DNA from: Schmidtea polychroa
Taxonomy: Eukaryota
Assembly: GCA_044892525.1 (NCBI GenBank)
Contig: CM097885.1
Coordinates: forward strand, 31,684,001 to 31,748,000
Direction of reading: 5' to 3'
Length of the DNA: 64,000 nt
Part shown: positions 4,469 through 61,393 of the stretch, piece by piece
Numbering within the stretch: position 1 is the stretch's first letter
How the letters are laid out: each line of letters starts with the position of its first letter
The notes under the pieces: generated by a model
Databases searched by the model: none
Seen by the model: the letters and a program-made list of their open reading frames with translations, nothing else
Told to the model about the DNA's origin: nothing
Position numbers and translations under genes: made by a program

Positions 4469-4650
4469 ATATTGTGCTGAATTTTAGAACAACATATGTC
4501 AATAAAGCTGGTCAAGTCATTTATGATCCAAAGGCTATCGCGAAGAACTATGCAAAAGGATGGTTTTTCCTTGATCTTCTGGCAGCCGTACCGTTTGACA
4601 TCATAGATTTGCTCTCGAATCAAGAAGCAACGCAAAGTTTTGGCGCTGTG
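4469..4650 (+). CDS. KCNH/Elk channel exon (S2-S3)
   Basis: ttttag|AT completes the Asp codon from the previous exon. Reads DIVLNFRTTYVNKAGQVIYDPKAIAKNYAKGWFFLDLLAAVPFD. Donor gtaaat at 4651, phase 0. Confidence 0.93.
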
Positions 4651-11848: not shown

Positions 11849-12924
11849 GTATAGAATAAAATTAAAATAAATGTTTTAATTACAATAACATTTATTGAAA
11901 TTTAAATTATTTTATAAAATTAACTAATGTAATTTATTCACAAAATAATTATTTAAACAAATCTATTTTTCAATTATTACAGTAAAAAAAATCTCAAATG
12001 TTTAAAAAGAACGATTTGGTGAAATTGAGTAAATTTTTCATAAAATTCATTAGAGAAAACTTGATTTTTAGGTGTCATTGAAATAATACTGTCATGTTGT
12101 AGATAAAAAATAAAATTTTGAATATTGGTTTAACCCAATAATAATAGATCACTGACAAATGCACAGATCTTTTAAATGTTAATGTAGAATGAAATTTTTT
12201 ATTAAATTATTTAAAATAAAATATTCGCAATTCATTTGTATTTTGTTTAAATTTCGATTTGAGTAATTGCCAGCATGAAATTTCAAAGAAAATAAATTTA
12301 ACTAAATCATTACTTTAAATAATCAAGAAAAATAAATTTGGAAATTTTTAAGAATACGGAAAATTTATTATTTATCACTGAATTTAAATTTAAATTGTCA
12401 TGAATAGTTATTGAAATTAAAGATAGCAATAATTAGAATATGTCTTTGACAGAACTCTTTCAATTATCCATTTATTATGCTTTTTAATGTCAGTAGCATA
12501 TAATGAGGACTCCAGGACACTTTCAAGGTCATGGAATATCAAGATCAAATATAGGTCAATTGAATCATTTATTTATTTATTTTTTTTTTTTTTAAATTAA
12601 CATTTTATTTAATTACTTCTTTTTAATTTTTTCTTTTTAATTTTTTCATTTTAATTTTATTAATTAATTATTTTATTATGTTTTATTTTAATTTATTACA
12701 TTTAATTAATTTATTAGTTTATTAATATTTTATTTTAATTACTTACGCTATTTAATTATTATTATTATTTTTTATTTATTTATTTATTTTTTTTTTTTTT
12801 AATTAATTAATTTATTTTTTATTTTTATTTAATTACTTCTATTTATTTATTTATTTATTTTATTTTTTTTATTTTTAATTTTCTTAATTAATTATTTTAT
12901 TATGTTTTTATTTTAGTATTATTT

Positions 12925-12963
<39 letters not shown>

Positions 12964-13285
12964 TTTTTTTTTTTTTTTTTAATTTTACATTTACATTATA
13001 TTCTAACAAGAGGTACATTATAACAATAATATTTCAATTTGAATAAAATATTAATTAGAAATTATTTAATTTATTATAAAATAAAACGCTGAGTTAATTT
13101 TAGATAAACCGGATATTAATTTTTCGGAAAAAATAAATAAAATAAACACAAAAATAATATTTCTTACTTGAAACTAATTATCTAAATTAATTGGACAAAT
13201 GAATAATTAAATGATAAAACACATTTTAATTAACTAAGTCAAACAATTCACAATATATATTTTATTATTCACATAAATTTAATTG

Positions 13286-16147
13286 TTAAAGTACTTGTTT
13301 CGATTTGCATTCATTTCTAGACATAGTAGTTGCAATATGCATTTGGCGAATCTTATAGTGACCGTAGGCATAACTTTCATTACAATTGTACCAATACCTT
13401 TTATCGTCCAAACATTGGAGAGCTCGTTTTTCTGTCATGAAAGTATACAACTGATGATTGACACTTCCTATTCTTTTTTGTGGGATGCTCACTGTTCCAC
13501 CATCAGTATACACTTTTTTATAGGCTTCATGTGTAAGATTAGAGTTTGTAAGTCTTATTCCTTTGGCTTTTAGAGTGTTTTTATCGCCTTGGAGTGAGTA
13601 GCACTTGGGTCGAAGAAACACCCATTCTTTATATTGATTTCCTTTATTCTCATCCTTAACTTTCCCGATTACAGAACAAATTTTATCAGAGAACAACGGA
13701 TCGGTCACTGGATAATTTGAAGTATCTAGTAGCCCATCTTCAATCATTTTTGGATATAGTTGTAAGCGTAAATCTACATTTTTACACTCTAAAAAGAAGG
13801 AATCTGTGTCACCAGCTACGATATTAATTTGACAATTGAATTTTTCTCTATAACTCTGTAGTTCTTTATATTGAAATTGGTACATGCGAAGTTTGGATAA
13901 ATCAAGTACGGTTTGTCCAATATACATTGGTCTATCTAAACACACAATTTCCTTATTGAGTATAACAGCAATGAGATCATCCGCAATCTTGATGCTACGA
14001 CGAAACATAGGATGACTACAATAAGTTATCAATCTTTTGCTTTTGCTGCATAATCTCAAATTTATACGTTTCTTCAAGTTTTCCACAGTTTTACCGTATA
14101 AACTGTTGTTCTTTAACTTATAATAATCTCGCTGAAACGAATCCGTACTAGCTGCTCTCATTTTGGTATTGTAATCAATATATCCTTTGAAAATAGCCAC
14201 TTGTTTGAATTCTACAGCACGATTAACTTTTGTGACTTTTGCGCCGTAACTCAACCACTCTGTCAAAACTCTACCATTAACTACATAGTTTTTCTTATGC
14301 TCATGAGTTAACAACAGCTTTTCAACTTTACTACCAGGTGGATAACAAAGCTCAGGAGCTATAGGTAAATCATCTAGCTTATCTTGTATACTATCAGGAA
14401 TGACGATATCAACCTCTAGAACATATCCACGATCTCCATCAAACTCATCCCCATTTGCACATCTTTCAACAATACCATTCATTTCAGTCTGATCATTTAT
14501 CCATCTAAATTCCCCAACAGGAAGTTTTTGCGACAGCGCCCATCCATATAAATTATTAACATCTAGGTATGACATTTGTGTTGATTCATCAGCTTCAACA
14601 TGATGTTTGTTGATAAATGTCATTCCACCACGAATACCAGCTTCAAATAAACGGTAAAGCTCTGGATCTTGAATAAGTTCTACCGGTTCAGGTAACTGTT
14701 TAATAGCTGATGCCCAACTTAATCCGGGTATGGAAACAAACGATAGAGCCTCAAGTCCATCTTCGTCAAATGTTTTTTCTCTGAAAGCTTCAAAAACATC
14801 GGCCAACAGAAAAACATCCAACTTGAGATATACGAGCATGTAATCTAGCAGTGTCTCACAGTTGTATTGTTGCCAGATTCGATTTGCATGTATATAATCT
14901 TCTTGACTAACTCCCTCCCAAATCGGTGGTAATTCTGTTATTGACTGTAAAACATCCATTGATGTAGCCATATCATAAGGAAAAATGGTTTTACAAGTCA
15001 TCATCTGTGATTCGAAAACATCTGAGGTCAGTGGAAGACATGGTAAATTTCTTGATAAATTTGCCAAGCTGCTATTTAAAAATTGTAAAGAATCAATGAA
15101 TCTCATTCTTCTGCCTTTCGATGTCGCTGTAAGTGTGAGAAACTTTTCTGTTGATTGAGGAATAACATTTAAATTCCAATCAGGGAATTTTCCAATTGCA
15201 TATTTTAATATATGATGAATGTCATATCCACGAAGATTATGAAATACAACAGGTAAAGACGGATTGATTCTTCTAGCCAAGTTGCAATCTTGACATGCTG
15301 CTCCGAGATATTGACCAGTAAAATGATCATGATCTCGAACAGGTATATTGATAATCTTTTTACAAAGGTAGCAATGAGTTTGATTCGTAAATTCTTCCTG
15401 CTGTTCCCAAGTGAGTTCCATCATTTCCTTTGATCCATTAATTTTATACCACGGATAAACTATGTCTGTAGCTATATCATCCAATGCTTGTATGAACTGA
15501 ATGATACAGTTTTCCCCAACAAATGTTTCATTTCGGATCGGACAACCTTGATGAAGAAGCACAAATTCAGATGCAATCGGCTCATGTTTTTGGAAGTGTT
15601 TGTCATCTAGAGGTAATATCGATTCAAAGTCCGCGTAGACAACAAACTGCTGTTTTATAGTTTTACTCCAGTCTTTAAATTCGATATATTTATTCTCTGG
15701 CATTGAGTATAGAGTCGTCCGCTCCACATTTTTCCTACAAAGACCTATATGTCTTTCAAAAGCAGGACGTTTTCGAAACCCATGAAGACATGTATGACAC
15801 CATTGTGATTGGATTCTGACTCCTTCTACTCTATCTCTGTAATTCAGCAGTCGATCGAGATTGGTTACAGCCAAAAAATGATAATTTAATTCTAAAATTT
15901 AGTTAATATTTTAATGATTAAAGGAAATATTACCTTCTTCAATCAATAAGAGATATATCTGAGATCCCGTCGAAGTACTTCTATATACCAAGTCAACGAA
16001 CGGATTCTTGAAAATATCATTAGTTTTTTGTTTAATTGGATCTTTATTATATTTGAGAACATTGATCGCTAGATTAGGATTCATTGCTTCAAATTGGCAA
16101 ATGTTAACCAACTTCATTGGAAACCAATCTGATTTCCATTTTAACTC

Positions 16148-16185
<38 letters not shown>

Positions 16186-17277
16186 GAATGATATAAATAT
16201 ATATTACCACTTAAATTATATTTCATTACTCTTTCTCTGTGGTGTTTTATGTCATCATAATGTAATACAGCCAGTATGCCATATAAAAAGCAGAATTGAT
16301 CATTATTTTGAACATTAACTAAAGCCTGACAGTTTTTCAGGTAATTTGGCGTTTTAATGTAACTTGAACCTAAGTAAATATCTTGATTTATATATATAAT
16401 AATGTAAATAAACTTACCAGATACATGTATTATGTCTGATAATTTAGTTAAAATCATAGTAACTTCTAATATTTTATGAATTCTCCACCCACTACTTTGT
16501 TGAGTGTATTTCTCCAACTTTTCTTTTAATTTTTCAATTCCATCATTAATAAATGAAGATGACATTGTAATTGCTTTATTCGACAAACACCATTTTTTAA
16601 TTTCACCATCCTCTTTGATAAACTCTGCACAAAGTCCAAATTGGATTTTTACTGTCCCCATTCGTTGAATATGATCTTCTATTTCTTTGATGAGACAATC
16701 TGGAACAACAATGTCAGGAGAATTAATTGCAGATACATCGCTTGTCAATTCAACACGAGAACCGTTTAAGTCAGACTCCCGACGTGGACACAATTGTATG
16801 TTAGAGTCTCCATTTCCGTAAAATATTGACTTTCGTTTTGTGGTGCCAGAGTTTTGTCTAACTATATTTATAATTAATATTAAACAACTTAAATAACATA
16901 ACTTGTAACATATTCTTTAATCTCCTTAGGATCGTATGATGTATTCATTTTCGATTGTACTATAAAAAATTAATAATTGTTAATAGTAGAAAGAGTATTA
17001 CTTTTAGTGATCATCCTGCTCTTCGTTTCTTCGAATCTTCTAAGATGGTGTCCGTGTTGTCGTACAAACATTAACCACCTACCTGGTGTTATAATGAGAC
17101 ATTCCGGACATATGTAACCCGATAAGGTAGAGTCATTTATCTTGAAATATGATGATGTAACTGATTTACAGTTCTCCACATCTTCATGACTTTCGGCAAT
17201 ACAAAATTTATATAAACTGCATCCGTTCACTAAAAAATAATCATTAATATTAGATAGAGAATAAAAATTTATTCACT
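13286..17277 (-). CDS. polB: Mirror copy of the spliced pPolB gene. Predicted exons 17277, 17229-17002, 16959-16903, 16861-16418, 16369-16208, 16146-15934, 15891-13286
   Basis: ORF translations (862, 99, 229, 86 aa) are identical to those of the right arm, with mirrored splice sites. Confidence 0.9.
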
Positions 17278-17327
17278 TATATAAGTTAAATTAAAAGTTT
17301 AAATGACAAACATTTGAAAAGTTACTG

Positions 17328-17437
17328 CTTATATATTACACATGATTAAATTCTGACCAATCAAAATCAAGGAAGGGGTAGGAAAAATAAATATATTCTG
17401 ACCAATCAAAATCAAGGAAGGGGTAGGAAAAATAAAT
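17328..17437 (-). promoter_or_regulatory. Mirror copy of the putative polB promoter
   Basis: Two copies of TTCTGACCAATCAAAATCAAGGAAGGGGTAGGAAAAATAAAT, plus CTTATATA. Confidence 0.6.
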
Positions 17438-18549
17438 GCATTACATTGCAGTATTTTAAAACTTAAATTTTAAAACACATTTTGACGCTAAAGTTGACTT
17501 ATTTAACATTTTCATAATAATTTAATAAAAATAATGTGTTGAACTCACAAAGTAATATCATTTTTTTTTTTTCATCAAATTGCAAAACAGTAATAACGTT
17601 TTCATAAAATTGTAACAAAGTAATAACATATTTCAGATAAATTTTCAACAGTTGTAAAATATTTATCAAATTGTAACTAAAATAATAAAAATATTGCAAC
17701 AAAGTAATAAAATAATGATGTTAATTGGGACAAATCAATACATTATTTCGAAGACGGACAACAAATTAAAAAAGAATATTGTAATAAATTGTGAAGTCTT
17801 TCAGTAAATTACAACAAAGTAATAACATATTTCGGAAATATTTCACCAGATGTAAAATATTTAAGCAAATTGTTATAAGATTATAAAAATATTGCAACAA
17901 AGTAATAAAATAATACAACATTTTAAACTCTAGATCAATCCATTTTATAGAAAATTAAATTTTATCTCTATAATATATGAATAAATATACAAGGAAATTA
18001 CGTTAACGTATAATAAAACATGTGTGTATTACACACAAAACAAGATACATAATTTCTAATCAATCCATTTTATAGAAAATTAAATTTTATCTATATATTA
18101 TATGAATAAAATCCTAAGAAAATTACGTTAACCGCGCGAAAAATACAAATTTATCGTAAAAACATGTGTGTATTACACACAACATACGAGACATAATTTT
18201 TAATCAAGCTATTTTATAGAAAATTAAATTTTATCTATATATTAAATGAATAAAAATCCAAGAAAATAACGTTAAGCGCGCGAAAAAATACAAATTTATT
18301 GTAAAAACATGTGTGCATTACACACAAAGCACCAAACTGAAATTGTAATTGCGCCGTGTTGTAGAGAATTAAATTCTGCCTATACATTGTTACACTTAAA
18401 TCTCGATCAGACCTGTGAAAAGAGACATAAAAGAGAAAGAACAGTAGAGTAGTATGATTGGTCCCCGCCAGACCAGGTCCCCTCCAGACCACATATACCC
18501 CCTCCCCCCCCCCCTCCCCCCCGGGAAAAATTTTTTTTTTTTTTAAAAT

Positions 18550-20950
18550 AAAAGGTCAAGGTCATTTTTTAATTTAATTTTTTGTTTTAATTAAGTGATC
18601 ATTTAATTTTTCAAGGTCATATTTTAAAATTTAAATGTACAGAGTTCCCGCCAACAAATATTATTAAACGATACCTCATCTTAAAGCTCGGTCTAAGACC
18701 TTTCGATTGATCCATAGAAGGTGTCATCATCATTAATATTAACAAAGTTATTAACATTTAACCAAAAATCATTTTCAAGGTCATATAATTATTAGTGGTC
18801 CAGCGGTGACCTGGTTTTCGTTTGCCCCAAAGTTATCGTTCCCATTATCCGAATTTATTAATCGATAGCTTATTTTGAAGCGTAGTCTAAGACCTTTCAA
18901 TTGAGCCATAGAAGGTATCATCATCATTAACATCGGCAAAGTTATTAAAGTTTTACCGAGACCATTTTTCAAGGTCATTTATTTTTCAAAATATTATTTT
19001 CAAGGTCAAGGTCAAGGTCATTTATTTTTTCAAGGTCATTTATTTTTTCAAGGTCATTTATTTTTTCAAGGTCATTTATTTTTTCAAGGTCATTTATTTT
19101 TTCAAGGTCATATTTTAAAATTTAAATGTACAGAGTTCCCGACAACGATAATTATTCAACGATAGCTCATTTTAAAGCCCAATGCAAGACCTTTCGATTG
19201 ATTCATAGAAGGTATCATCATCATTATTATTGACAAAGTTATTATCAATTAACCAAAAATCATTTTCAAGGTCATATAATTATTAGTGGTCCAGCGGTGA
19301 CCTGGTTTTCGTTTGCCCCAAAGTTATCGTTCCCATTATCCGAATTTATTAATCGATAGCTTAATTTGAAGCTTAGTGCAAGATCTATCTACTGATGTAT
19401 AAATATTATCATCATCATTATTATTGGCAAAATTATTAACGTTTTCCCGAGACCATTTTCAAGGTCATTTATTTTTCAAAATATTATTTCCAAGGTCATT
19501 TATTTTTTCAAGGTCATTTATTATTTCCAAGGTCATTTATTTTTTCAAGGTCATTTTTTTTTTTCAAGGTCATTTTTTAATTTAATTTTTTGTTTTAATT
19601 AAGTGATCATTTAATTTTTCAAGGTCATATTTTAAAATTTAAATGTACAGAGTTCCCGCCAACAAATATTATTAAACGATACCTCATTTTAAAGCTCGGT
19701 CTAAGACCTTTCGATTGATCCATAGAAGGTATCATCATCATTAATATTAACAAAGTTATTAACATTTAACCAAAAATCATTTTCAAGGTCATATAATTAT
19801 TAGTGGTCCAGCGGTGACCTGGTTTTCGTTTGCCCCAAAGTTATCGTTCCCATTATCCGAATTTATTATTTGATAGCTTATTTTGAAGCTTAGTGCAAGA
19901 TCTATCTACTGATGTATAAATATTATCATCATCATTATTATTGGCAAAATTATTAACGTTTTCCCGAGACCATTTTCAAGGTCATTTATTTTTCAAAATA
20001 TTATTATTTCCAAGGTCATTTATTTTTTCAAGGTCGCGTGACTCATCAAGGTCATTCCCAAGGTCATTTTTTTTTTTCAAGGTCATTTTTTAATTTAATT
20101 TTTTGTTTTAATTAAGTGATCATTTAATTTTTCAAGGTCATATTTTAAAATTTAAATGTACAGAGTTCCCGCCAACAAATATTATTAAACGATACCTCAT
20201 TTTAAAGCTCGGTCTAAGACCTTTCGATTGATCCATAGAAGGTATCATCATCATTAATATTAACAAAGTTATTAACATTTAACCAAAAATCATTTTCAAG
20301 GTCATATAATTATTAGTGGTCCAGCGGTGACCTGGTTTTCGTTTGCCCCAAAGTTATCGTTCCCATTATCCGAATTTATTATTTGATAGCTTATTTTGAA
20401 GCTTAGTGCAAGATCTATCTACTGATGTATAAATATTATCATCATCATTATTATTGGCAAAATTATTAACGTTTTCCCGAGACCATTTTCAAGGTCATTT
20501 ATTTTTCAAAATATTATTATTTCCAAGGTCATTTATTTTTTCAAGGTCGCGTGACTCATCAAGGTCATTCCCAAGGTCATTTTTTTTTTCAAGGTCATTT
20601 TTTAATTTAATTTTTTGTTTTAATTAAGTGATCATTTAATTTTTCAAGGTCATATTTTAAAATTTAAATGTACAGAGTTCCCGCCAACAAATATTATTAA
20701 ACGATACCTCATTTTAAAGCTCGGTCTAAGACCTTTCGATTGATCCATGGAAGGTATCATCATCATTAATATTAACAAAGTTATTAACATTTAACCAAAA
20801 ATCATTTTCAAGGTCATATAATTATTAGTGGTCCAGCGGTGACCTGGTTTTCGTTTGCCCCAAAGTTATCGTTCCCATTATCCGAATTTATTATTGGATA
20901 GCTTATTTTGAAGCTTAGTGCAAGATCTATCTACTGATGTATAAATATTA
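18550..20950 (+). repeat. Central non-palindromic spacer: about five tandem ~490-517-bp units rich in CAAGGTCA
   Basis: Marker GTCCAGCGGTGACCTGG recurs at ~18797, 19289, 19806, 20319 and 20831. Roughly 35 CAAGGTCA motifs by eye, all on the + strand, some in 18-bp sub-repeats (TTTATTTTTTCAAGGTCA). Confidence 0.92.
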
Positions 20951-21154
20951 TTATTAACATTATTTTACACACGGGGGGGGGAGAGGGTATATGTGGCCTG
21001 GCGGTGACCTGGTCTGGATGGCCCCAATCATACTACTCTACTGTTCTTTCTCTTTTATGTCTCTTTTCACAGGTCTGATCGAGATTTAAGTGTAACAATG
21101 TATAGGCAGAATTTAATTCTCTACAACACGGCGCAATTACAATTTCAGTTTGGT

Positions 21155-21550
21155 GCTTTGTGTGTAATGCACACATGTTTTTACAATAAATTTGTATTTT
21201 TTCGCGCGCTTAACGTTATTTTCTTGGATTTTTATTCATTTAATATATAGATAAAATTTAATTTTCTATAAAATAGCTTGATTAAAAATTATGTCTCGTA
21301 TGTTGTGTGTAATACACACATGTTTTTACGATAAATTTGTATTTTTCGCGCGGTTAACGTAATTTTCTTAGGATTTTATTCATATAATATATAGATAAAA
21401 TTTAATTTTCTATAAAATGGATTGATTAGAAATTATGTATCTTGTTTTGTGTGTAATACACACATGTTTTATTATACGTTAACGTAATTTCCTTGTATAT
21501 TTATTCATATATTATAGAGATAAAATTTAATTTTCTATAAAATGGATTGA
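21155..21550. repeat. Three degenerate ~120-bp tandem repeats in the inner arm (mirror copy ~17935-18330)
   Basis: TGTGTGTAATRCACACATGTTTT, TTAACGT and ATAAAATTTAATTTTCTATAAAAT each recur three times. Confidence 0.8.
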
Positions 21551-22047
21551 TCTAGAGTTTAAAATGTTGTATTATTTTATTACTTTGTTGCAATATTTTT
21601 ATAATCTTATAACAATTTGCTTAAATATTTTACATCTGGTGAAATATTTCCGAAATATGTTATTACTTTGTTGTAATTTACTGAAAGACTTCACAATTTA
21701 TTACAATATTCTTTTTTAATTTGTTGTCCGTCTTCGAAATAATGTATTGATTTGTCCCAATTAACATCATTATTTTATTACTTTGTTGCAATATTTTTAT
21801 TATTTTAGTTACAATTTGATAAATATTTTACAACTGTTGAAAATTTATCTGAAATATGTTATTACTTTGTTACAATTTTATGAAAACGTTATTACTGTTT
21901 TGCAATTTGATGAAAAAAAAAAAATGATATTACTTTGTGAGTTCAACACATTATTTTTATTAAATTATTATGAAAATGTTAAATAAGTCAACTTTAGCGT
22001 CAAAATGTGTTTTAAAATTTAAGTTTTAAAATACTGCAATGTAATGC

Positions 22048-22157
22048 ATTTATTTTTCCTACCCCTTCCTTGATTTTGATTGGTCAGAATATATTTATTT
22101 TTCCTACCCCTTCCTTGATTTTGATTGGTCAGAATTTAATCATGTGTAATATATAAG
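22048..22157 (+). promoter_or_regulatory. Putative Pol II promoter of polB: two direct repeats (45-bp period) each with an inverted CCAAT box, followed by a TATA-like box
   Basis: ATTTATTTTTCCTACCCCTTCCTTGATTTTGATTGGTCAGAAT at 22048 and 22093. TATATAAG at 22150-22157, ~50 nt before the first splice donor. Confidence 0.6.
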
Positions 22158-22207
22158 CAGTAACTTTTCAAATGTTTGTCATTTAAACTTTTAATTTAAC
22201 TTATATA

Positions 22208-23299
22208 AGTGAATAAATTTTTATTCTCTATCTAATATTAATGATTATTTTTTAGTGAACGGATGCAGTTTATATAAATTTTGTATTGCCGAAAGTCATG
22301 AAGATGTGGAGAACTGTAAATCAGTTACATCATCATATTTCAAGATAAATGACTCTACCTTATCGGGTTACATATGTCCGGAATGTCTCATTATAACACC
22401 AGGTAGGTGGTTAATGTTTGTACGACAACACGGACACCATCTTAGAAGATTCGAAGAAACGAAGAGCAGGATGATCACTAAAAGTAATACTCTTTCTACT
22501 ATTAACAATTATTAATTTTTTATAGTACAATCGAAAATGAATACATCATACGATCCTAAGGAGATTAAAGAATATGTTACAAGTTATGTTATTTAAGTTG
22601 TTTAATATTAATTATAAATATAGTTAGACAAAACTCTGGCACCACAAAACGAAAGTCAATATTTTACGGAAATGGAGACTCTAACATACAATTGTGTCCA
22701 CGTCGGGAGTCTGACTTAAACGGTTCTCGTGTTGAATTGACAAGCGATGTATCTGCAATTAATTCTCCTGACATTGTTGTTCCAGATTGTCTCATCAAAG
22801 AAATAGAAGATCATATTCAACGAATGGGGACAGTAAAAATCCAATTTGGACTTTGTGCAGAGTTTATCAAAGAGGATGGTGAAATTAAAAAATGGTGTTT
22901 GTCGAATAAAGCAATTACAATGTCATCTTCATTTATTAATGATGGAATTGAAAAATTAAAAGAAAAGTTGGAGAAATACACTCAACAAAGTAGTGGGTGG
23001 AGAATTCATAAAATATTAGAAGTTACTATGATTTTAACTAAATTATCAGACATAATACATGTATCTGGTAAGTTTATTTACATTATTATATATATAAATC
23101 AAGATATTTACTTAGGTTCAAGTTACATTAAAACGCCAAATTACCTGAAAAACTGTCAGGCTTTAGTTAATGTTCAAAATAATGATCAATTCTGCTTTTT
23201 ATATGGCATACTGGCTGTATTACATTATGATGACATAAAACACCACAGAGAAAGAGTAATGAAATATAATTTAAGTGGTAATATATATTTATATCATTC

Positions 23300-23337
<38 letters not shown>

Positions 23338-26199
23338 GAGTTAAAATGGAAATCAGATTGGTTTCCAATGAAGTTGGTTAACATTTGCCAATTTGAAGCA
23401 ATGAATCCTAATCTAGCGATCAATGTTCTCAAATATAATAAAGATCCAATTAAACAAAAAACTAATGATATTTTCAAGAATCCGTTCGTTGACTTGGTAT
23501 ATAGAAGTACTTCGACGGGATCTCAGATATATCTCTTATTGATTGAAGAAGGTAATATTTCCTTTAATCATTAAAATATTAACTAAATTTTAGAATTAAA
23601 TTATCATTTTTTGGCTGTAACCAATCTCGATCGACTGCTGAATTACAGAGATAGAGTAGAAGGAGTCAGAATCCAATCACAATGGTGTCATACATGTCTT
23701 CATGGGTTTCGAAAACGTCCTGCTTTTGAAAGACATATAGGTCTTTGTAGGAAAAATGTGGAGCGGACGACTCTATACTCAATGCCAGAGAATAAATATA
23801 TCGAATTTAAAGACTGGAGTAAAACTATAAAACAGCAGTTTGTTGTCTACGCGGACTTTGAATCGATATTACCTCTAGATGACAAACACTTCCAAAAACA
23901 TGAGCCGATTGCATCTGAATTTGTGCTTCTTCATCAAGGTTGTCCGATCCGAAATGAAACATTTGTTGGGGAAAACTGTATCATTCAGTTCATACAAGCA
24001 TTGGATGATATAGCTACAGACATAGTTTATCCGTGGTATAAAATTAATGGATCAAAGGAAATGATGGAACTCACTTGGGAACAGCAGGAAGAATTTACGA
24101 ATCAAACTCATTGCTACCTTTGTAAAAAGATTATCAATATACCTGTTCGAGATCATGATCATTTTACTGGTCAATATCTCGGAGCAGCATGTCAAGATTG
24201 CAACTTGGCTAGAAGAATCAATCCGTCTTTACCTGTTGTATTTCATAATCTTCGTGGATATGACATTCATCATATATTAAAATATGCAATTGGAAAATTC
24301 CCTGATTGGAATTTAAATGTTATTCCTCAATCAACAGAAAAGTTTCTCACACTTACAGCGACATCGAAAGGCAGAAGAATGAGATTCATTGATTCTTTAC
24401 AATTTTTAAATAGCAGCTTGGCAAATTTATCAAGAAATTTACCATGTCTTCCACTGACCTCAGATGTTTTCGAATCACAGATGATGACTTGTAAAACCAT
24501 TTTTCCTTATGATATGGCTACATCAATGGATGTTTTACAGTCAATAACAGAATTACCACCGATTTGGGAGGGAGTTAGTCAAGAAGATTATATACATGCA
24601 AATCGAATCTGGCAACAATACAACTGTGAGACACTGCTAGATTACATGCTCGTATATCTCAAGTTGGATGTTTTTCTGTTGGCCGATGTTTTTGAAGCTT
24701 TCAGAGAAAAAACATTTGACGAAGATGGACTTGAGGCTCTATCGTTTGTTTCCATACCCGGATTAAGTTGGGCATCAGCTATTAAACAGTTACCTGAACC
24801 GGTAGAACTTATTCAAGATCCAGAGCTTTACCGTTTATTTGAAGCTGGTATTCGTGGTGGAATGACATTTATCAACAAACATCATGTTGAAGCTGATGAA
24901 TCAACACAAATGTCATACCTAGATGTTAATAATTTATATGGATGGGCGCTGTCGCAAAAACTTCCTGTTGGGGAATTTAGATGGATAAATGATCAGACTG
25001 AAATGAATGGTATTGTTGAAAGATGTGCAAATGGGGATGAGTTTGATGGAGATCGTGGATATGTTCTAGAGGTTGATATCGTCATTCCTGATAGTATACA
25101 AGATAAGCTAGATGATTTACCTATAGCTCCTGAGCTTTGTTATCCACCTGGTAGTAAAGTTGAAAAGCTGTTGTTAACTCATGAGCATAAGAAAAACTAT
25201 GTAGTTAATGGTAGAGTTTTGACAGAGTGGTTGAGTTACGGCGCAAAAGTCACAAAAGTTAATCGTGCTGTAGAATTCAAACAAGTGGCTATTTTCAAAG
25301 GATATATTGATTACAATACCAAAATGAGAGCAGCTAGTACGGATTCGTTTCAGCGAGATTATTATAAGTTAAAGAACAACAGTTTATACGGTAAAACTGT
25401 GGAAAACTTGAAGAAACGTATAAATTTGAGATTATGCAGCAAAAGCAAAAGATTGATAACTTATTGTAGTCATCCTATGTTTCGTCGTAGCATCAAGATT
25501 GCGGATGATCTCATTGCTGTTATACTCAATAAGGAAATTGTGTGTTTAGATAGACCAATGTATATTGGACAAACCGTACTTGATTTATCCAAACTTCGCA
25601 TGTACCAATTTCAATATAAAGAACTACAGAGTTATAGAGAAAAATTCAATTGTCAAATTAATATCGTAGCTGGTGACACAGATTCCTTCTTTTTAGAGTG
25701 TAAAAATGTAGATTTACGCTTACAACTATATCCAAAAATGATTGAAGATGGGCTACTAGATACTTCAAATTATCCAGTGACCGATCCGTTGTTCTCTGAT
25801 AAAATTTGTTCTGTAATCGGGAAAGTTAAGGATGAGAATAAAGGAAATCAATATAAAGAATGGGTGTTTCTTCGACCCAAGTGCTACTCACTCCAAGGCG
25901 ATAAAAACACTCTAAAAGCCAAAGGAATAAGACTTACAAACTCTAATCTTACACATGAAGCCTATAAAAAAGTGTATACTGATGGTGGAACAGTGAGCAT
26001 CCCACAAAAAAGAATAGGAAGTGTCAATCATCAGTTGTATACTTTCATGACAGAAAAACGAGCTCTCCAATGTTTGGACGATAAAAGGTATTGGTACAAT
26101 TGTAATGAAAGTTATGCCTACGGTCACTATAAGATTCGCCAAATGCATATTGCAACTACTATGTCTAGAAATGAATGCAAATCGAAACAAGTACTTTAA
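22208..26199 (+). CDS. polB: Protein-primed family B DNA polymerase polyprotein (terminal-protein/OTU-like N-terminus, Zn finger, 3'-5' exonuclease with endonuclease VII insert, polymerase). Predicted exons 22208, 22256-22483, 22526-22582, 22624-23067, 23116-23277, 23339-23551, 23594-26199; 1236 aa
   Basis: ExoI YADFES, ExoII HNLRGYD, ExoIII YLKLDV, motif A YLDVNNLYG, motif B KLKNNSLYGK, motif C GDTDS, plus LRPKCYS, KAKGI and DDKRY. Six GT-AG introns of 41-61 nt join the four ORF-track pieces into one 3711-nt frame. The 5' exon model is manual. Confidence 0.9.
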
Positions 26200-26521
26200 C
26201 AATTAAATTTATGTGAATAATAAAATATATATTGTGAATTGTTTGACTTAGTTAATTAAAATGTGTTTTATCATTTAATTATTCATTTGTCCAATTAATT
26301 TAGATAATTAGTTTCAAGTAAGAAATATTATTTTTGTGTTTATTTTATTTATTTTTTCCGAAAAATTAATATCCGGTTTATCTAAAATTAACTCAGCGTT
26401 TTATTTTATAATAAATTAAATAATTTCTAATTAATATTTTATTCAAATTGAAATATTATTGTTATAATGTACCTCTTGTTAGAATATAATGTAAATGTAA
26501 AATTAAAAAAAAAAAAAAAAA

Positions 26522-26560
<39 letters not shown>

Positions 26561-29500
26561 AAATAATACTAAAATAAAAACATAATAAAATAATTAATTA
26601 AGAAAATTAAAAATAAAAAAAATAAAATAAATAAATAAATAAATAGAAGTAATTAAATAAAAATAAAAAATAAATTAATTAATTAAAAAAAAAAAAATAA
26701 ATAAATAAATAAAAAATAATAATAATAATTAAATAGCGTAAGTAATTAAAATAAAATATTAATAAACTAATAAATTAATTAAATGTAATAAATTAAAATA
26801 AAACATAATAAAATAATTAATTAATAAAATTAAAATGAAAAAATTAAAAAGAAAAAATTAAAAAGAAGTAATTAAATAAAATGTTAATTTAAAAAAAAAA
26901 AAATAAATAAATAAATGATTCAATTGACCTATATTTGATCTTGATATTCCATGACCTTGAAAGTGTCCTGGAGTCCTCATTATATGCTACTAATGTCTAT
27001 GATGAATTTCTGTAAATTTATTGATTTTCTGTAATGAAATTTTATTTGTTTGAATTTGTTTTATAATTAAAATGTTTTACATGTGTACAAAAAATTTGCA
27101 AATATTGTATTTTGTGATTATTATTCGTATTTATAAAGAATTAGTAATTGAAGCTTTATTATGTATGAAACAAAAGTTTTATTAGAACTATAAATATTTT
27201 GAAGGAAATTTATAAGTGCTTTTCATTTTAATTATAACAAATTGATCATTAAAATCTTTTATCTTTTACACAATAATCTATTATCTTTTGCAATTTTTAT
27301 TATCATCACTTATTTATGGAAATTATAACAATATTTTGTTTTTTATTTAACATAATGTGATTTTGATAAAGGCTATACCGAAAATTCATGTTAAATATGA
27401 CGTAAATATATAAAGAAATAATAAGAAATTAAATTAAAACTAATAAATAATTATAAGAACTTTTTTCAGTTTTCACCTCTGATTTCTTTTCAATTGACAT
27501 TGTATTAAAAAGATTTGACTTAAATGCTAAAGAAATCGATATCTTTACCAATTCATAGACAAATATTTTTAATAAATTCTATAAATAATAATTTTATATA
27601 TTAAAAAGGTTTTGTGTACTACTGAAAATGACGATAGAATATTCGAGTTTTCTTTTTCTATCCTAATGTATATTTTGTTGTATTTTCAAAGAGCTCTACA
27701 AAATCAAGAGAGGTTGAAAAATGGAAAAATTTTAAATATTGTGTTTGATGAATTTTTCCATTTTCAAAAGTCAGTTAAGCTTCTTAATTCATATTAATTG
27801 CTTTACTTGAAGCAACACTTGATTGTCACATAAACTGACCAGACTTTTCAAGAGTTCTTCAAGTGCAACACAGTTAAAAACCGTTGACAAACCTTTATCA
27901 AAATGCCTTCCACTAAATGATTTCAGTTTTTTACTTTTTGCAATTTCCTTCAGATAACTACAGACCTTCCTGAAACTAGCTAATTTACAACTTTATATAG
28001 TAATTTATTAGTTTTTTATGAGTGATTTTCCCATTGAATTCTGTAATAAATAAAGAATTTATTTTGTCTATGAAGTAGAAGACCTTTTGAAGTTCAATTA
28101 AGTTTAGTTATACGAAGATATAAATTTTTATTTATCTTTATATACTCCATGTTATGATTCGTGTCAAATATTGTCTTCAGGTCAAGACTTATTATTTTTC
28201 CAAGAATTTATAACATAATCTTTGTAACACTACTAAATTGGAACCTTATTCTAGGTAGAATAAGTCATGCATAATTATTATATTTCAACTCCATTATCTC
28301 TAGTATGACTTATAACACTAATATTCAGCTCTAGAAAGTCAAGTACTTGTCAAACAATTCTTTTACTTTAAGGATTAAGGATAAAGTAAAGAGTCTTCCG
28401 TTTTAAATTGAGAAAACCTCATAAGATTGAAATTTAAGAGTCATTTACAAGAAATAGCACCTGCAATAGATTAACTCTCAGAAACCCAGATCCTCAAAAG
28501 TTCCGTGAAACAACTGAGAGACACTTAGAGGTTATAAAGGTTATAAATCATTTAAGAATATATTTGAAATTTTAATCCCGAATTTTGTTTAGCACGTAAA
28601 AAGCTAAATATTCAAAATAAAATAACAATGCCAAGTTTTCACCGAGATTTTGCACAGTAACATTTGAAAAATTTAATTTACATGCAAAAAAATAATAAAT
28701 ATTATGGGTATAAGCAAAACCTTTTTATCATTTTGTTAATTGTAGATTTCATTTTTTTGTATTTAAAACTTAAAACATTTTTATTTTATATATTTTAAAA
28801 ATTAAAAGTCAGAGAGGTCGGAAACCACTGATCTACAGGGTATTTCCAAATTGTTAATAGTCGGCTGATGCTCCAGTAGAACTTGATGTGTTATAAATAT
28901 ACATAAGCTTTTTTTTGTTATATGCATTAATTTTATGGCGTCAATTATAATTTTAACAAATTTATAAAAAATATATATTGTTTGGATATAATGTTAAAAT
29001 CAATCTATGCAACATGTCAAGAAAATGTTATTGTAAGATTGAACCAAAATTATTACCTGACTTCAGATTGTTGAAATATAATCCCTTGTGTGTTAACGTG
29101 TTTGCTAGCGCTAAAGCTTTGATAATAAGGTTGCAATGTTTGAAGCATGAATGTTTAATTACTAACATAAGAAATTGAATCATTCTATTTGTCGATATTT
29201 GTTTGATTGATGATTGTTTAAAACAAAATGTTCTTTCATTTTATATCAATTTAAAAAAATATATAATTCGCCAAGCATTACCAAATTTATGGAGGAAATC
29301 GAGAATTATGGTAAATTCTATTTAATCATTTTCAATGTTAATATTTCATTTATAGGTGCTTATGTCGCTATTATTTTGGAAAGATTGAAGTGTCATTATC
29401 CACAAATGGCTGAAATTCTCAATGGTAAACCATCAACAATGATTCCCGATCTGGCTTACAAGGAGACAATAATTTGGATTTTGGATATTATCCAGCAATT

Positions 29501-29567: not shown

Positions 29568-30420
29568 ATACACGACAAAATCAAAGCAATCAAAAATTAT
29601 CCTTTACCCAAAACAACAAAAGAGCTAAGACGTTTCCTTGGCATGATCAATTTTTATCACAAATACATTCCAAAATGTAGTGAAATGCTAGCTCCTCTCA
29701 AAGAACTGAACAAAATAAAGAGAAACATCAAAATAAATTGGAACTAAAAACTAATAACGCTTTCGAACAGGCAAAAGAAAACCTGAAAAATGCAAGCATC
29801 CTAAGCTATCCCAACCAAGAATTACCATACATAGTCAACACAGATATTTCGGGATTAGCAATGGGCGGAACTATATTCCAAGAAGAAAAAAACGAAAAAA
29901 GATCAATAGCTTTCTTCTCAAAGAAACTCAAAACTCACCAAATGAAATACTCTACTTTTGATAGGGAAGTATTAGCGCTACATTATATAATCAGACATTT
30001 CCAATACCTATTGGAAGGAAAGGATTTCGAAGTGTATACAAATCATAAACCCTTAATAAACGCAATGAACATGAAAAATCCTTCACCGAGACAAATAAGA
30101 CAACTAAACTATATCTCACAATTTAATTGCAAAATAAAATACATAGCAGGTTCAGCTAACATACGTACAGATGCATTATCAAGAATAGAAACTGACATCA
30201 ATGCACTTAACATACCACCCATCATAGAGTTAGAAAATTTAAAAACTAAACAAAAAGAAACACTAATCGAAACTGCAAGGTTGAATTCACTCCAATTGGA
30301 AAAAATATGGTACGACACTTCAAATGACAATTTTAAAAGACAATAAACAAATCAAAATAAACATACGCAGATTAAAACCATATCACGAAAACAAAGCACC
30401 CACATTTAACGATCACCACA
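29568..30420 (+). mobile_element. Ty3/Gypsy pol fragment (RT connection, RNase H)
   Basis: KELRRFLGMINFY, TDISGLAMGG, IAFFSKKL, YSTFDREVLA, VYTNHKPL, IKYIAGSAN, DALSR. Confidence 0.88.
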
Positions 30421-54998: not shown

Positions 54999-55924
54999 GT
55001 AAATGTGGTTTAAAATAAGAATTTTTTGTTTTATTTTAAAAAGATAGAAATAAATGGTATTAGTATAAATATTATTATTACCTAATTAAAATTTCATTCA
55101 AATAATAATACATAATTTACATATGTCATCAACTATAAGCAGAAAATGTGTATGTTGTTCGATGTCTGCACACATACTTGTTAATTGCCTCCAATCAGAA
55201 CTCGAGAACAAATGCATAATTTATCCAGTTCTATTCATATCAACCAAAATGATAGATAAACATAGAATTTTCAATTTATTTACGCTGATTTTTAAAACAA
55301 TCACAAAAAATGTCACGTGAGTCTGATGTATCATAATCTGTTTATTGCAAATTCAATTTAAAAACGGTATATTATTATGTGCCTCTATATGTACGTTTCG
55401 AGTATTGTCAATGACGGTAATGTTTGATCGAGATATTTTTATCCTGTTCTATACATGTAATATGTCAGATTGTTTTATTGAATTATTAGAAAATATAAAA
55501 GATGAAAAGAATCATAAACTTTTAAGTTTTGATTTAGTTGTCTTTTATGACATTTTGAGTGATTGCAAACACTATTCTTTTAAGGGTTTGTAAGGATTTT
55601 TAAGATACATCATAAGAATATAATTTATGATTGTATAAACCCACATATAGACCGATACCATGAATAAATAGTTGCAAATTTTATTAAAATCGATTTTATA
55701 TTAATAATTTTTAATATCACTAATATAATATTTTTAAATAATTTTAATAATAATTTCAATAATAATTCCAAGTTTTCTTTAATTCTTTAACATTCGTTTT
55801 AAAAGTTTTCTAGTTATCGAGTATTAAATTATATCTCATTCAAACAAAAGAGTAGTATGTAGTAAGGACTCCAGCGCACTTTCAAGGTCATGGAATATCA
55901 AGATCAAATATAGACCAATCGAAT

Positions 55925-57050
55925 CATTTATTTTTTAAATTAACATTTTATTTAATTACTTCTTTTTAATTTTTCTTTTTAATTTTATTAATTAATTATT
56001 TTATGATGTTATATTTTAATTACTTACTTTATTTAATTTTTAATTTATTACATTTAATTAATTTATTAGTTTATTAATATTTTATTTTAATTACTTACGC
56101 TTTATTATTATTTATTTTTATTTTTATTTATTTTATTTTATTTTATTTTTTTTTTAATTAATTAATTTATTTTTTAATTTAAATTTTATTTAATTACTTC
56201 TATTTTTTTTTTCTTTTTAATTTTATTAATTAATTATTTTATGATGTTATATTGTAATTACTTACTTTAGTTAATTTTTAATTTATTACATTTAATTAAT
56301 TTATTAGTTTATTAATATTTTATTTTAATTACTTACGCTTTATTATTAATTATTTTTATTTATTATTTTTTTATTTTTTTTATTTTTTTTATTTTTTTTA
56401 ATTAATTTATTTTTTTTTTAATTTAAATTTTATTTAATTACTTCTATTTTTTTTTCTTTTTAATTTTATTAATTAATTATTTTATGATGTTATATTGTAA
56501 TTACTTACTTTAGTTAATTTTTAATTTATTACATTTAATTAATTTATTAGTTTATTAATATTTTATTTTAATTACTTACGCTTTATTATTATTTATTTTT
56601 ATTTTTATTTATTTATTTATTTTTTTTTAATTAATTAATTTATTTTTTAATTTAAATTTTATTTAATTACTTTTATTTATTTTATTTATTTATTTTTTTT
56701 TCTTTTTAATTTTATTAATTAATTATTTTATGATGTTATATTTTAATTACTTACTTTAGTTAATTTTTAATTTATTACATTTAATTAATTTATTAGTTTA
56801 TTAATATTTTATTTTAAAAACTTACGCTTTATTATTATTTATTTTTATTTATTTATTTATTTATTTTTTTTTTTAATTAATTTATTTATTTTTTAATTTA
56901 AATTTTATTTAATTACTTCTATTTATTTATTTTTTTTATTTATTTATTTTTTTTTTCTTTAATTTTCTTAATTAATTATTTTATTATGTTTTTATTTTAG
57001 TATTATTTTATTTATTTATTATTATTATTATTATTATTTTTTTTTTTTAA
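55925..57050. repeat. Subterminal extremely AT-rich ~240-bp tandem array of copy 2 (mirror ~60230-61300)
   Basis: Marker ACTTACGCTTT at ~56092, 56331, 56573 and 56820. AAAGCGTAAG occurs four times in the right arm. Copy 1 has one such marker per arm. Confidence 0.8.
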
Positions 57051-57385
57051 TTTTACATTTACATTATATTCTAACAAGAGGTAAATTATAACAATAATAT
57101 TTCAATTTGAATAAAATTTTAATTAGTAATTATTCAATTTGAATAAAATTTTAATTAGAAATTATTTAATTTATTATAAAATAAAACGCTGAGTTAATTT
57201 TGGATAAACCGGATATTAATTTTTCGGAAAAAATAAATAAAATAAACACAAAAATAATATTTCTTACTTGAAACTAATTATCTAAATTAATTGGACAAAT
57301 GAATAATTAAATGATAAAACACATTTTAATTAAGTAAGTCAAATAATTCACAATATATATTTTATTATTCACATAAATTTAATTG

Positions 57386-59470
57386 TTAAAGTGCTTGTTT
57401 CGATTTGCATTCATTTGTAGACGGAGCAGTTGCAATATGCATTTGACGAATCTTATAGTGACCGTAGGCATAGCTTTCATTAGAATTGAACCAATATCTT
57501 TTATCATCCAAACATTGGAGAGCTCGTTTTTCTGTAATGAAAGTATACAACTGACGATTAACACTTTCTATTCTCTTTTGTTGGATGCTCACTGTTCTAC
57601 CATCAGTATACACTTTTTTATAAGCTTCATGGGTGATATTAGAATTTGTAAGACTTATTCCTTTGGCTTTTAGAGTGTTTTTATCGCTTTGGAGTGAGTA
57701 GCATTTGGGTCGAAGAAACACCCATTCTTTATATTGATTTCCTTTATTCTCATCCTTAACTTTCCCGATTACCGAACAGATTTTATCAGAGAACAACGGA
57801 TCGGTCACTGGATAATTTGAAGTATCTAGGAGCCCATCTTCAATCATTTTTGGATATAGTTGTAAGCGTAAATCAACATTTTTACACTCTAAAAAGAAGG
57901 AATCTGTGTCACCGGCTACGATATTAATTTGACAATTGAATTCTTCTCTATAACTCTGTAGTTCTTTATATTGAAACTGGTACATGCGAAGTTTGGATAA
58001 ATCAAGTACGGTTTGTCCAATATACATTGGTCTATCTAAACACACAATTTCCTTATTGAGTATAACAGCAATGAGATCATCCGCAATCTTAATGCTACGA
58101 CGAAACATAGGATGACTACAATAAGTTATCAATCTTTTGCTTTTGTTGCATAATCTCAAATTTATACGTTTCTTCAAGTTTTCCACAGTTTTACCGTATA
58201 AACTGTTGTTCTTTAACTTATAATAATCTCGCTGAAACGAATCCGTACTAGCTGCTCTCATTTTGGTATTGTAATCAATATAGCCTTTGAAAATAGCTAC
58301 TTGCTTGAATTCTACAGCACGATTAACTTTTGTGACTTTTGCGCCGTAACTCAACCACTCTGTCAAAATTCTACCATTAACTACATAGTTTTTCTTAGGC
58401 TCATGAGTTAACAACAGCTTTTCAACTTTACTACCAGGTGGATAACAAAGCTCAGGAGCTATAGGTAAATCATCTAGCTTATCTTGTATACTATCAGGAA
58501 TGACGATGTCAACCTCTAGAACATATCCACGATCTCCATCAAACTCATCCCCATTTGTACATCTTTCAACAATACCATTCATTTCAGTCTGATCATTTAT
58601 CCATCTAAATTCACCAACAGGAAGATTTTGCGACAGCGCCCATCCATATAAATTATTAACATCTAGGTATGACATTTGTGTTGATTCATCAGCTTCAACA
58701 TGATGTTTGTTGATAAATGTCATTCCACCACGAATAACAGCTTCGAATAAACGGTAAAGCTCTGGATCTTGAATAAGTTCTACCGGTTCAGGTAACTGTT
58801 TAATAGCTGATGCCCAACTTAATCCGGGTATGGAAACAAACGATAAAGCCTCAAGTCCATCTTCGTCAAATGTTTTTTTCTCTGAAAGCTTCAAAAACAT
58901 CGGCCAACAGAAAAACATCCAGCTTGAGATATACTAGCATGTAATCTAGCAGTGTCTCACAGTTGTATTGTTGCCAGATTCGATTTGCATGTATATAATC
59001 TTCTTCACTAACTCCCTCCCAAATCAGTGGTAATTCTGTTATTGACTGTAAAACATCCATTGATGTAGCCATATCATAAGGAAAAATGGTTTTACAAGTC
59101 ATCATCTGTGATTCGAAAACATCTGAGGTCAGTGGAAGACATGGTAAATTTTTTGATAAATTTGCCAAGCTGCTATTTAAAAATTGTAAAGAATCAATGA
59201 ATCTAATTCTTCTGCCTTTCGATGTCGCTGTAAGTGTGAGAAACTTTTCTGTTGATTGAGGAATAACATTTAAATTCCAATCGGGGAATTTTCCAATTGC
59301 ATATTTTAATATATGATGAATGTCATATCCACGAAGATTGTGAAATACAACAGGTAAAGACGGATTGATTCTTCTAGCCAAGTTGCAATCTTGACATGCT
59401 GCTCCGAGATATTGACCAGTAAAATGATCATGATCTCGAACAGGTATATTGATAATCTTTTTACAAAGGT
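57386..59470 (-). pseudogene. polB: 5'-truncated, frameshifted pPolB (left arm of copy 2)
   Basis: 171-aa and 510-aa ORFs are near-identical to copy 1. One extra T in the T-run at 58873-58879 shifts the frame. The gene is truncated at the start of the EndoVII Zn motif. Confidence 0.92.
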
Positions 59471-59891
59471 GACTGATCCATTGTTCTCAGATAAAATTTG
59501 TTCGGTAATCGGGAAAGTTAAGGATGAGAATAAAGGAAATCAATATAAAGAATGGGTGTTTCTTCGACCCAAATGCTACTCACTCCAAGGCGATAAAAAC
59601 ACTCTAAAAGCCAAAGGAATAAGTCTTACAAATTCTAATATCACCCATGAAGCTTATAAAAAAGTGTATACTGATGGTAGAACAGTGAGCATCCAACAAA
59701 AGAGAATAGAAAGTGTTAATCGTCAGTTGTATACTTTCATTACAGAAAAACGAGCTCTCCAATGTTTGGATGATAAAAGATATTGGTTCAATTCTAATGA
59801 AAGCTATGCCTACGGTCACTATAAGATTCGTCAAATGCATATTGCAACTGCTCCGTCTACAAATGAATGCAAATCGAAACAAGCACTTTAA
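59469..59891 (+). pseudogene. polB: C-terminal pPolB fragment (right arm of copy 2)
   Basis: VTDPLFSDKICSVIGKVKDE...KRALQCLDDKRY...KQAL, beginning abruptly at the deletion junction. Confidence 0.92.
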
Positions 59892-61393
59892 CAATTAAAT
59901 TTATGTGAATAATAAAATATATATTGTGAATTATTTGACTTACTTAATTAAAATGTGTTTTATCATTTAATTATTCATTTGTCCAATTAATTTAGATAAT
60001 TAGTTTCAAGTAAGAAATATTATTTTTGTGTTTATTTTATTTATTTTTTCCGAAAAATTAATATCCGGTTTATCCAAAATTAACTCAGCGTTTTATTTTA
60101 TAATAAATTAAATAATTTCTAATTAAAATTTTATTCAAATTGAATAATTACTAATTAAAATTTTATTCAAATTGAAATATTATTGTTATAATTTACCTCT
60201 TGTTAGAATATAATGTAAATGTAAAATTAAAAAAAAAAAATAATAATAATAATAATAATAAATAAATAAAATAATACTAAAATAAAAACATAATAAAATA
60301 ATTAATTAAGAAAATTAAAGAAAAAAAAAATAAATAAATAAAAAAAATAAATAAATAGAAGTAATTAAATAAAATTTAAATTAAAAAATAAATAAATTAA
60401 TTAAAAAAAAAAATAAATAAATAAATAAATAAAAATAAATAATAATAAAGCGTAAGTTTTTAAAATAAAATATTAATAAACTAATAAATTAATTAAATGT
60501 AATAAATTAAAAATTAACTAAAGTAAGTAATTAAAATATAACATCATAAAATAATTAATTAATAAAATTAAAAAGAAAAAAAAAATAAATAAATAAAATA
60601 AATAAAAGTAATTAAATAAAATTTAAATTAAAAAATAAATTAATTAATTAAAAAAAAATAAATAAATAAATAAATAAAAATAAATAATAATAAAGCGTAA
60701 GTAATTAAAATAAAATATTAATAAACTAATAAATTAATTAAATGTAATAAATTAAAAATTAACTAAAGTAAGTAATTACAATATAACATCATAAAATAAT
60801 TAATTAATAAAATTAAAAAGAAAAAAAAATAGAAGTAATTAAATAAAATTTAAATTAAAAAAAAAATTAATTAATTAAAAAAAATAAAAAAATAATAAAT
60901 AAAAATAAAAATAAATAATAATAAAGCGTAAGTAATTAAAATAAAATATTAATAAACTAATAAATTAATTAAATCTAATAAATTAAAAATTAACTAAAGT
61001 AAGTAATTACAATATAACATCATAAAATAATTAATTAATAAAATTTAAATTAAAAAATAAATTAATTAAATAAAAAAAAATAAAATAAAATAAAATAAAT
61101 AAAAATAAAAATAAATAATAATAAAGCGTAAGTAATTAAAATAAAATATTAATAAACTAATAAATTAATTAAATGTAATAAATTAAAAATTAAATAAAGT
61201 AAGTAATTAAAATATAACATCATAAAATAATTAATTAATAAAATTAAAAAGAAAAATTAAAAAGAAGTAATTAAATAAAATGTTAATTTAAAAAATAAAT
61301 GATTCGATTGGTCTATATTTGATTTTGATATTCCATGACCTTGAAAGTGCGCTGGAGTCCTTACTACATACTACTCAAAAGGAATTATATATA

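Follow-up and report, generated by a model that had tools for sequence, protein, structure and literature searches.

A many-copy palindromic Polinton derivative carrying only polymerase genes in Schmidtea polychroa

Polintons (Mavericks) have ends that start with AG and are flanked by a 6-bp target-site duplication (TSD). How could an element with such ends spread through a genome if DNA polymerase were its only recognizable gene? The question is raised by a 64,000-nucleotide stretch of Schmidtea polychroa DNA (NCBI GenBank assembly GCA_044892525.1, contig CM097885.1, positions 31,684,001 to 31,748,000, forward strand), referred to here as the window, in which a 14,500-bp palindrome holds two head-to-head genes for a protein-primed DNA polymerase (pPolB). 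The host genome is AT-rich and spans 781 Mb, of which the contig that holds the window makes up 272 Mb. We found that the palindrome, here called family A, is a real, many-copy mobile element that does not qualify as an autonomous Polinton; it probably copies itself and borrows the integrase of complete Polintons in the same genome. The observations comprise its layout, its dispersal with separate TSDs, the absence of other genes in the copies read, the identity of its arms, purifying selection on the polymerase and recurrence of the layout in two further lineages.

Self-BLAST of the window returned a single inverted match, 12492-18512 against 26991-20973, with 99.83% identity over 6,021 columns. 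The two 6.02-kb arms account for 83% of the element, confirming the share of about 82% given in a first-pass annotation made from the sequence alone. The AGTAG...CTACT ends and 6-bp TSD named there were also recovered: the termini read AGTAGCATAT at the left and ATATGCTACT at the right, and AATGTC flanks both sides, where a chance 6-bp match is expected in about 9 of 10,000 cases per locus. Arm-to-arm differences were limited to two 1-base indels in T runs and eight substitutions, all eight within the innermost 50 bp. As annotated, a repeat spacer separates the arms; it measures 2,460 bp and is built of tandem units of about 510 bp. No Rfam match was found in the spacer, and family A showed no terminal hairpin (z -0.25). 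The spacer (18513-20972) holds 28 copies of the motif TCAAGGTCA, which agrees with what we take to be an NR5A/ERR nuclear-receptor site; every copy is on the plus strand, and each end (12523, 26952) has one more. We rejected the motif as an essential spacer signal: it was absent from 44 kb of other window DNA, yet only 3 of 15 other family-A centres contained it.

Copies were sought with the main (last) and first identified exons of the polymerase gene; the best 52 of 18,405 main-exon and the best 150 of 4,059 first-exon candidates were scored, and the counts are lower bounds. The 52 main-exon matches were 97-100% identical, and 32 of them formed 16 head-to-head pairs. Among the 150 first-exon matches, 126 (84%) made up 63 head-to-head pairs with a spacing of 1.8-6.2 kb, and none had a neighbour in direct orientation. 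The window copy is thus not the one-off that the first-pass annotation had allowed for. All nine loci with two family-A ends that were read at both ends (A/A loci), including a second copy in the window and one at C3:36.52 Mb, carried their own distinct 6-bp TSD. The inner boundaries of the arms and the spacers varied among the 15 other centres; spacers of the same type and size were seen in copies on different chromosomes (L035, L040, L042, L045). In the second window copy, one polymerase is reduced to its 3' part and the other to its tail, with a 2-base microhomology at the junction near 59469. The AT-rich ends of this copy are expanded as 240-bp repeats, and its arms differ at 14 positions.

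Each arm contains an outward-directed open frame of 870 codons (13286-15898 on the minus strand, 23587-26199 on the plus strand) that matches Pfam DNA_pol_B_2 (PF03175, E 1e-29) and includes a weak match to Endonuclease_7. The catalytic motifs of pPolB are present in this main exon. An AlphaFold model of the polymerase, with a mean predicted local distance difference test score of 77, matched phi29 polymerase best (E 2e-18); a sequence search of the PDB returned no matches. The annotated pair of intact, outward pPolB genes was therefore right as to frame and domain, but splicing had been missed: the 870-codon frame is the last exon only, and the gene also includes upstream frames of 100 and 270 codons as exons. 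Metagenomic polymerases that lack introns, the best of them 57-62% identical, aligned over 22255-22506, 22602-23276 and 23326-26139, with the frame shifting between blocks. Every frame change is explained by five GT-AG introns of 41-61 bp, giving six stop-free exons of about 1,236 codons. All ten splice dinucleotides were intact in 28 of 28 arm copies, and indels among copies clustered in two of the five introns. From these alignments we infer a pPolB gene with five introns. Because the first identified exon has no ATG, the gene needs one or more smaller exons further upstream; no start codon was found. Used alone, the polymerase protein found no related loci in metagenome or viral contigs; with an alignment as query, 37 loci emerged from the metagenome contigs and none from the viral ones.

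The first-pass annotation had seen no other convincing gene and had named hidden integrase or capsid exons as a finding that would overturn it. The window element, the second window copy and the 15 other centres (17 stretches) were compared with 61 frames taken from three metagenomic Polintons and a genomic Polinton stretch. In none of the 17 did we find a match to an integrase, capsid, penton, ATPase or TBP-like frame; polymerase was the sole match. An integrase query from close relatives gave no matches in the 17 stretches versus 116 elsewhere in the genome. For an adenovirus-like protease, there was no Pfam match in four arm frames, and no protease was knowingly among the 61 queries.

Unpaired matches were sampled for a complete family-A parent. 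Upstream of 19 of 20 unpaired main-exon matches (5.5 kb), seven samples held an opposite arm, one an arm in the same orientation and 11 no match; upstream of 20 of 24 unpaired first-exon matches (4.5 kb), the counts were five, one and nine, and five faced another polymerase. None of the 39 samples, 20 of which matched nothing, held an integrase, capsid or ATPase, and no complete family-A Polinton was seen in this partial sampling of the genome. A 33.8-kb locus with family-A ends and an integrase was rejected as an autonomous candidate: it is a family-A palindrome whose arms are both interrupted, one by a nested Polinton of another family (family C), the other by a different insertion. The sole integrase found between family-A ends belongs to this nested, complete copy of about 15 kb, which sits in the TA-repeat intron of the family-A polymerase. 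The reading covered this locus and left out one of 24.8 kb on C1. Some upstream samples had repeats in common (L105, L106, L107, L110; L124, L136), which might represent nested elements or further types of spacer.

Comparison of arms within and between copies bears on how the element replicates. Over the 2,607 bp of the main exon, the two arms were identical in seven of seven copies; between copies, 8-65 bases differed. These seven copies carried 32 private variants, every one in both arms. Arm identity is not universal, since the inner arm blocks of the 15 other centres had 0 to 49 mismatches. The polymerase is under purifying selection: the ratio of nonsynonymous to synonymous polymorphism (pN/pS) was 0.16 for variants common to at least 2 of 20 copies and 0.41, with nine stops, for singletons, as simple counts against the window copy in which related copies are not independent.

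Candidate helpers are present in the same genome. The nearest relatives with sequence context (L053, L055, L057; 52-57% identical) are complete Polintons with capsid, integrase and ATPase frames, along with frames that we presume to be penton-like and TBP-like. As queries, their capsid, integrase and ATPase frames gave 103, 116 and 150 scored matches in the S. polychroa genome, with identities of 54-77%. Open frames prevailed among the capsid and integrase matches, and most top ATPase matches carried one TGA. Another capsid family contributed 126 further matches. Inverted pairs of capsid, integrase and ATPase matches were also present. The packaging-ATPase family is very high in copy number; most of its top copies share one common in-frame TGA and some lie in inverted pairs (e.g. 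G000:C1:224248994 and 224254438), and it could be a non-autonomous family or subject to readthrough. One of the metagenomic relatives also has a frame resembling, by eye, a ubiquitin-conjugating E2 enzyme (L055:13480-13977).

The palindromic layout recurs in two other polymerase lineages. The family-C polymerase lies at one end of its element and is directed outward. Among 75 family-C matches of at least 95% identity (75 weaker ones were dropped), 27 had an upstream integrase, 22 formed 11 head-to-head pairs, none had both and 26 had neither; one of the pairs lies in a tandem array and one is ambiguous. Complete and palindromic forms thus stand side by side in family C, which serves as the control and is the likely model of origin. 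Its terminal inverted repeats (TIRs) exceed 1.1 kb, with a gene inside (L084:557-1102 and L093). A tandem array of family-C polymerase fragments (G000:C3:136704097-136736191) has a spacing of about 2.7 kb and two opposed blocks.

Family D has an intronless polymerase 41-51% identical to that of family A in the sampled pieces. It is nearer to other metagenomic polymerases, among which family A ranks 10th-62nd, in a comparison of short fragments that is a ranking and not a tree. Of 150 scored family-D matches, 128 formed 64 head-to-head pairs, with an AGTAG end of their own about 4 kb outside. Judged from the spacing, less than 3 kb is left in the centre, too little for a gene cassette. A family-D polymerase faces a family-A arm in 5 of the 20 sampled unpaired first-exon loci, with about half-plus-half spacing (G000:C2:85467704-85481053; L130, L134, L139, L140). 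The data do not support these A/D hybrids as mobile units: the sole locus read at both ends combines a D end with an A end and lacks a TSD (GTAAAT versus CAACTT). The hybrids may be later rearrangements or misjoins.

A family-B Polinton (L046:1432-9107, at G000:C1:165.72 Mb) has a 276-bp terminal hairpin, a capsid gene, an intronless pPolB and a duplicated 54-bp upstream motif; another of its frames is presumably PLA2-like plus a truncated integrase. It was rejected as the partner of family A in a bipartite system, given its own pPolB and DNA similarity to family A limited to 53 bp of the polymerase. A second capsid match lies 13 kb from the family-B capsid in inverted orientation, which suggests another palindrome with its genes pointing inward. 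All four families start with AGTAG, and their sequences diverge afterwards.

Together, family A is mobile, has Polinton ends and no integrase of its own that we could find, and helper genes are present in the genome, as in a non-autonomous Polinton derivative. We consider it probable that family A consists of helper-dependent, polymerase-only Polinton derivatives that arose by copy-back of the polymerase end and are integrated in trans. The starting point would be a Polinton with an outward pPolB at its end; replication would copy that end, switch template and copy back. The product would read end-polymerase-spacer-polymerase-end, and the integrase, ATPase and capsid cassette would be lost. 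The spliced, phi29-type, strand-displacing pPolB would then start protein-primed synthesis on a linear copy, at its AGTAG ends. The arms of the displaced strand would pair as a panhandle, where copy-back or repair would equalize them before insertion. The retroviral-type integrase of complete, AGTAG-ended Polintons would insert the copy in trans and generate the 6-bp TSD. The first-pass annotation had proposed a satellite or a snap-back derivative. Our data support it, and the two look like stages of one process, because family C has complete and palindromic forms side by side and family A is mostly palindromic and under purifying selection.

Several observations weigh against this interpretation. 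The ends of family A agree with those of the integrase-bearing families in the first 5 bases only, which does not single out the acting integrase. The introns are deduced solely from homology and conservation. Twenty of the 39 upstream samples were uninformative, and scoring the best 52 of 18,405 and 150 of 4,059 candidates leaves room for a rarer complete family-A parent. Two copies (L012/13, L026/27) have the same stop codons in both arms and TSDs, so that either an element does not always need its own polymerase or the arms were homogenized after insertion; consensus polishing could also be a partial source of perfect arm identity. Paired ends are likewise seen in many short deletion copies, with the TSD read for one, and the full palindrome is therefore dispensable for insertion.

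Four rival explanations were weighed. A complete family-A Polinton that exists, or recently did, might throw off copy-back palindromes that integrate once as dead-end by-products, selection on pPolB having acted in the parent. Family C is in just such a mixed state, only top candidates were scored in the family-A searches, and spacers vary as though formed repeatedly. We nevertheless regard this as unlikely: 84% of the scored first-exon matches are paired, no sample upstream of the unpaired ones held a cassette gene, the lone integrase between family-A ends came with a nested family-C insertion, and the spacer type and size common to several chromosomes suggest that palindromes beget palindromes. 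A real element might owe its arm identity to host gene conversion acting on nearby inverted repeats once inserted, or to assembly polishing, and not to its own replication; this would fit the shared stop codons of two copies and the extreme absence of single-arm variants in seven. Other copies with 1-49 arm mismatches, the 14 mismatches in the second window copy and one-arm insertions with no mirror in the other arm make it a shade more doubtful still.

The palindromes might instead be the polymerase segment of a multipartite Polinton whose capsid, integrase and ATPase lie on polymerase-less segments, as in segmented bidna-like viruses. Capsid, integrase and ATPase matches do occur in inverted pairs, and the modal size of family-A and family-D palindromes, about 13-13.6 kb, is near that of the complete family-C copy of about 15 kb. 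However, both capsid-bearing elements read (families B and C) have their own pPolB and ends unlike those of family A after 5 bases, and palindrome size is partly set by geometry and by the pairing window used; we hold this very improbable. Least credible of all, to the point of being nearly dismissed, is an assembly fold-back, the artefact that the first-pass annotation had itself set out. Very high arm identity and the A/D locus with no TSD, perhaps a misjoin, would suit it. Direct TSDs in unrelated flanks at nine of nine A/A loci cannot come from a fold-back error, the spacers are asymmetric, nested insertions are confined to one arm, and the assembly also contains many family-C polymerases that are not folded back.

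With helper-dependent Polinton derivatives as the preferred reading, family A can be set beside known systems. Like Polintons/Mavericks, including the adintovirus-type polintoviruses of animals, it has pPolB, TIRs, AG ends and a 6-bp TSD; it differs in that integrase, ATPase and capsid genes are missing, the polymerase gene has introns and is present twice, and TIRs of 6 kb fill 83% of the element. Copy-back or snap-back defective genomes and panhandle repair are known for adenovirus and parvovirus ends. Family A resembles such genomes in its identical arms and, probably, in a palindrome derived from one end and in helper dependence, but it is chromosomally integrated, inherited and high-copy, and keeps a selected replicase. 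For origin from one end of a complete parent, family C offers complete and palindromic forms together, and no complete parent of family A appeared in the partial sampling. Transpovirons and, presumably, linear protein-primed plasmids are likewise capsid-less replicons that depend on other viruses.

In transpovirons, pPolB is consistently paired with a DDE integrase (bioRxiv 10.64898/2026.10.13.758929), whereas family A is palindromic and has none. In Drosophila Vesanto virus and bidnaviruses, PolB lies on separate molecules with inverted terminal repeats, as in family A; their non-integrated segments of 3.3-5.8 kb have common termini (PMC8363768), whereas the two capsid-bearing elements that we read offered no shared-end partner for family A. 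Butterfly polintons have TIRs of about 2 kb with hexon and adenain in otherwise complete elements, and polB-less polintons there are still mobile (bioRxiv 10.1101/2025.02.07.637071). Core genes doubled in TIRs and mobile non-autonomous forms are thus common to both systems, but the defective butterfly forms lack polB, the sole gene kept by family A. Caenorhabditis elegans loci with pPolB and TIRs and no integrase have been regarded as remnants (10.1101/2024.01.15.575659). Planarian Polintons are targets of PIWI-interacting RNAs (PMC8532177), and Mavericks have expanded in Dugesia (10.64898/2025.12.11.693146).

The first-pass annotation knew of no described family with this architecture. We found no polymerase-only palindromic Polinton in the available portions of the full-text literature, including PMC6431247 and PMC4028283; Repbase, subscription papers and bioRxiv supplements lay outside the search and may hold one. 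The claim of novelty was slightly overstated, as the gene-bearing butterfly TIRs show. Surveys with TIR limits and hallmark-gene rules can miss elements such as family A; in one on corals, the upper bound for TIRs was 2,500 bp and several hallmark genes had to be present (PMC11131425).

Models of Polinton replication, with protein priming and a single-strand panhandle, have been drawn largely from gene content. Private mutations common to both 6-kb arms would be a genomic record of the panhandle intermediate and make the model testable. Polinton functions also appear separable, the replicase being selected in cis and the integrase borrowed. With at least 63 family-A and 64 family-D paired loci, each about 13 kb long, the host genome also carries a substantial burden of long inverted repeats. 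More tentatively, and with some doubt, polymerase-only giant palindromes might form a stable, repeatedly evolved class of Polinton satellites. These would replicate themselves, have independent origins in three or more polymerase lineages, be more numerous or longer-lived than their complete parents, swap arms between lineages (the A/D hybrids) and parasitize shared integrases and perhaps capsids. Such a class could be viewed as germline-inherited defective-interfering genomes or as an early step to a segmented polintovirus.

Table 1. Positions of family-A features in the window (position 1 is the first nucleotide of the 64,000; "." marks features with no strand).
Feature	Position	Strand	Remarks
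Whole palindromic element, family A	12492..26991	.	14,500 bp
Left TSD AATGTC	12486..12491	+	
Left arm	12492..18512	.	begins AGTAG; AT-rich low-complexity tract ~12567-12992
Left pPolB gene	13286..17229	-	main exon frame 13286-15898; upstream exons mirror the right arm; 5' limit from symmetry
Inner non-coding part of left arm	17350..18328	.	putative promoter region; 45-bp duplication and 144-bp tandem repeat; mirror 21158-22135
Non-palindromic spacer	18513..20972	.	about five tandem units of ~510 bp; 28 plus-strand TCAAGGTCA
Right arm	20973..26991	.	CTACT at end
pPolB exon, first identified	22256..22483	+	Cys-rich; after AG acceptor
pPolB exon	22526..22582	+	after 42-bp GT-AG intron
pPolB exon	22624..23067	+	after 41-bp intron
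pPolB exon	23116..23277	+	after 48-bp intron
pPolB exon	23339..23551	+	after 61-bp TA-repeat intron
pPolB main exon	23594..26199	+	exonuclease and polymerase motifs, endonuclease-VII-like insert
Right TSD AATGTC	26992..26997	+	
Second family-A copy, centrally deleted	55851..61375	.	5,525 bp; TSD CAAAAG; arms ~1.9 kb; pPolB 5'-truncated and frameshifted

On either side of the palindrome, plus-strand exons with Pfam ion-channel matches were found at 4414-4698, 52966-53238 and 54785-55015; they seem to resemble an EAG/ERG potassium channel. The family-A element appears to lie within an intron of this ion-channel gene. Elsewhere the window holds decayed pieces of long terminal repeat retrotransposons (RNase H, zinc knuckle, integrase), a hAT fragment, an ISXO2-like transposase fragment and an actin-like fragment (29684-30346, 61391-64000, 33157-33447, 37128-37397 and 48848-49222).

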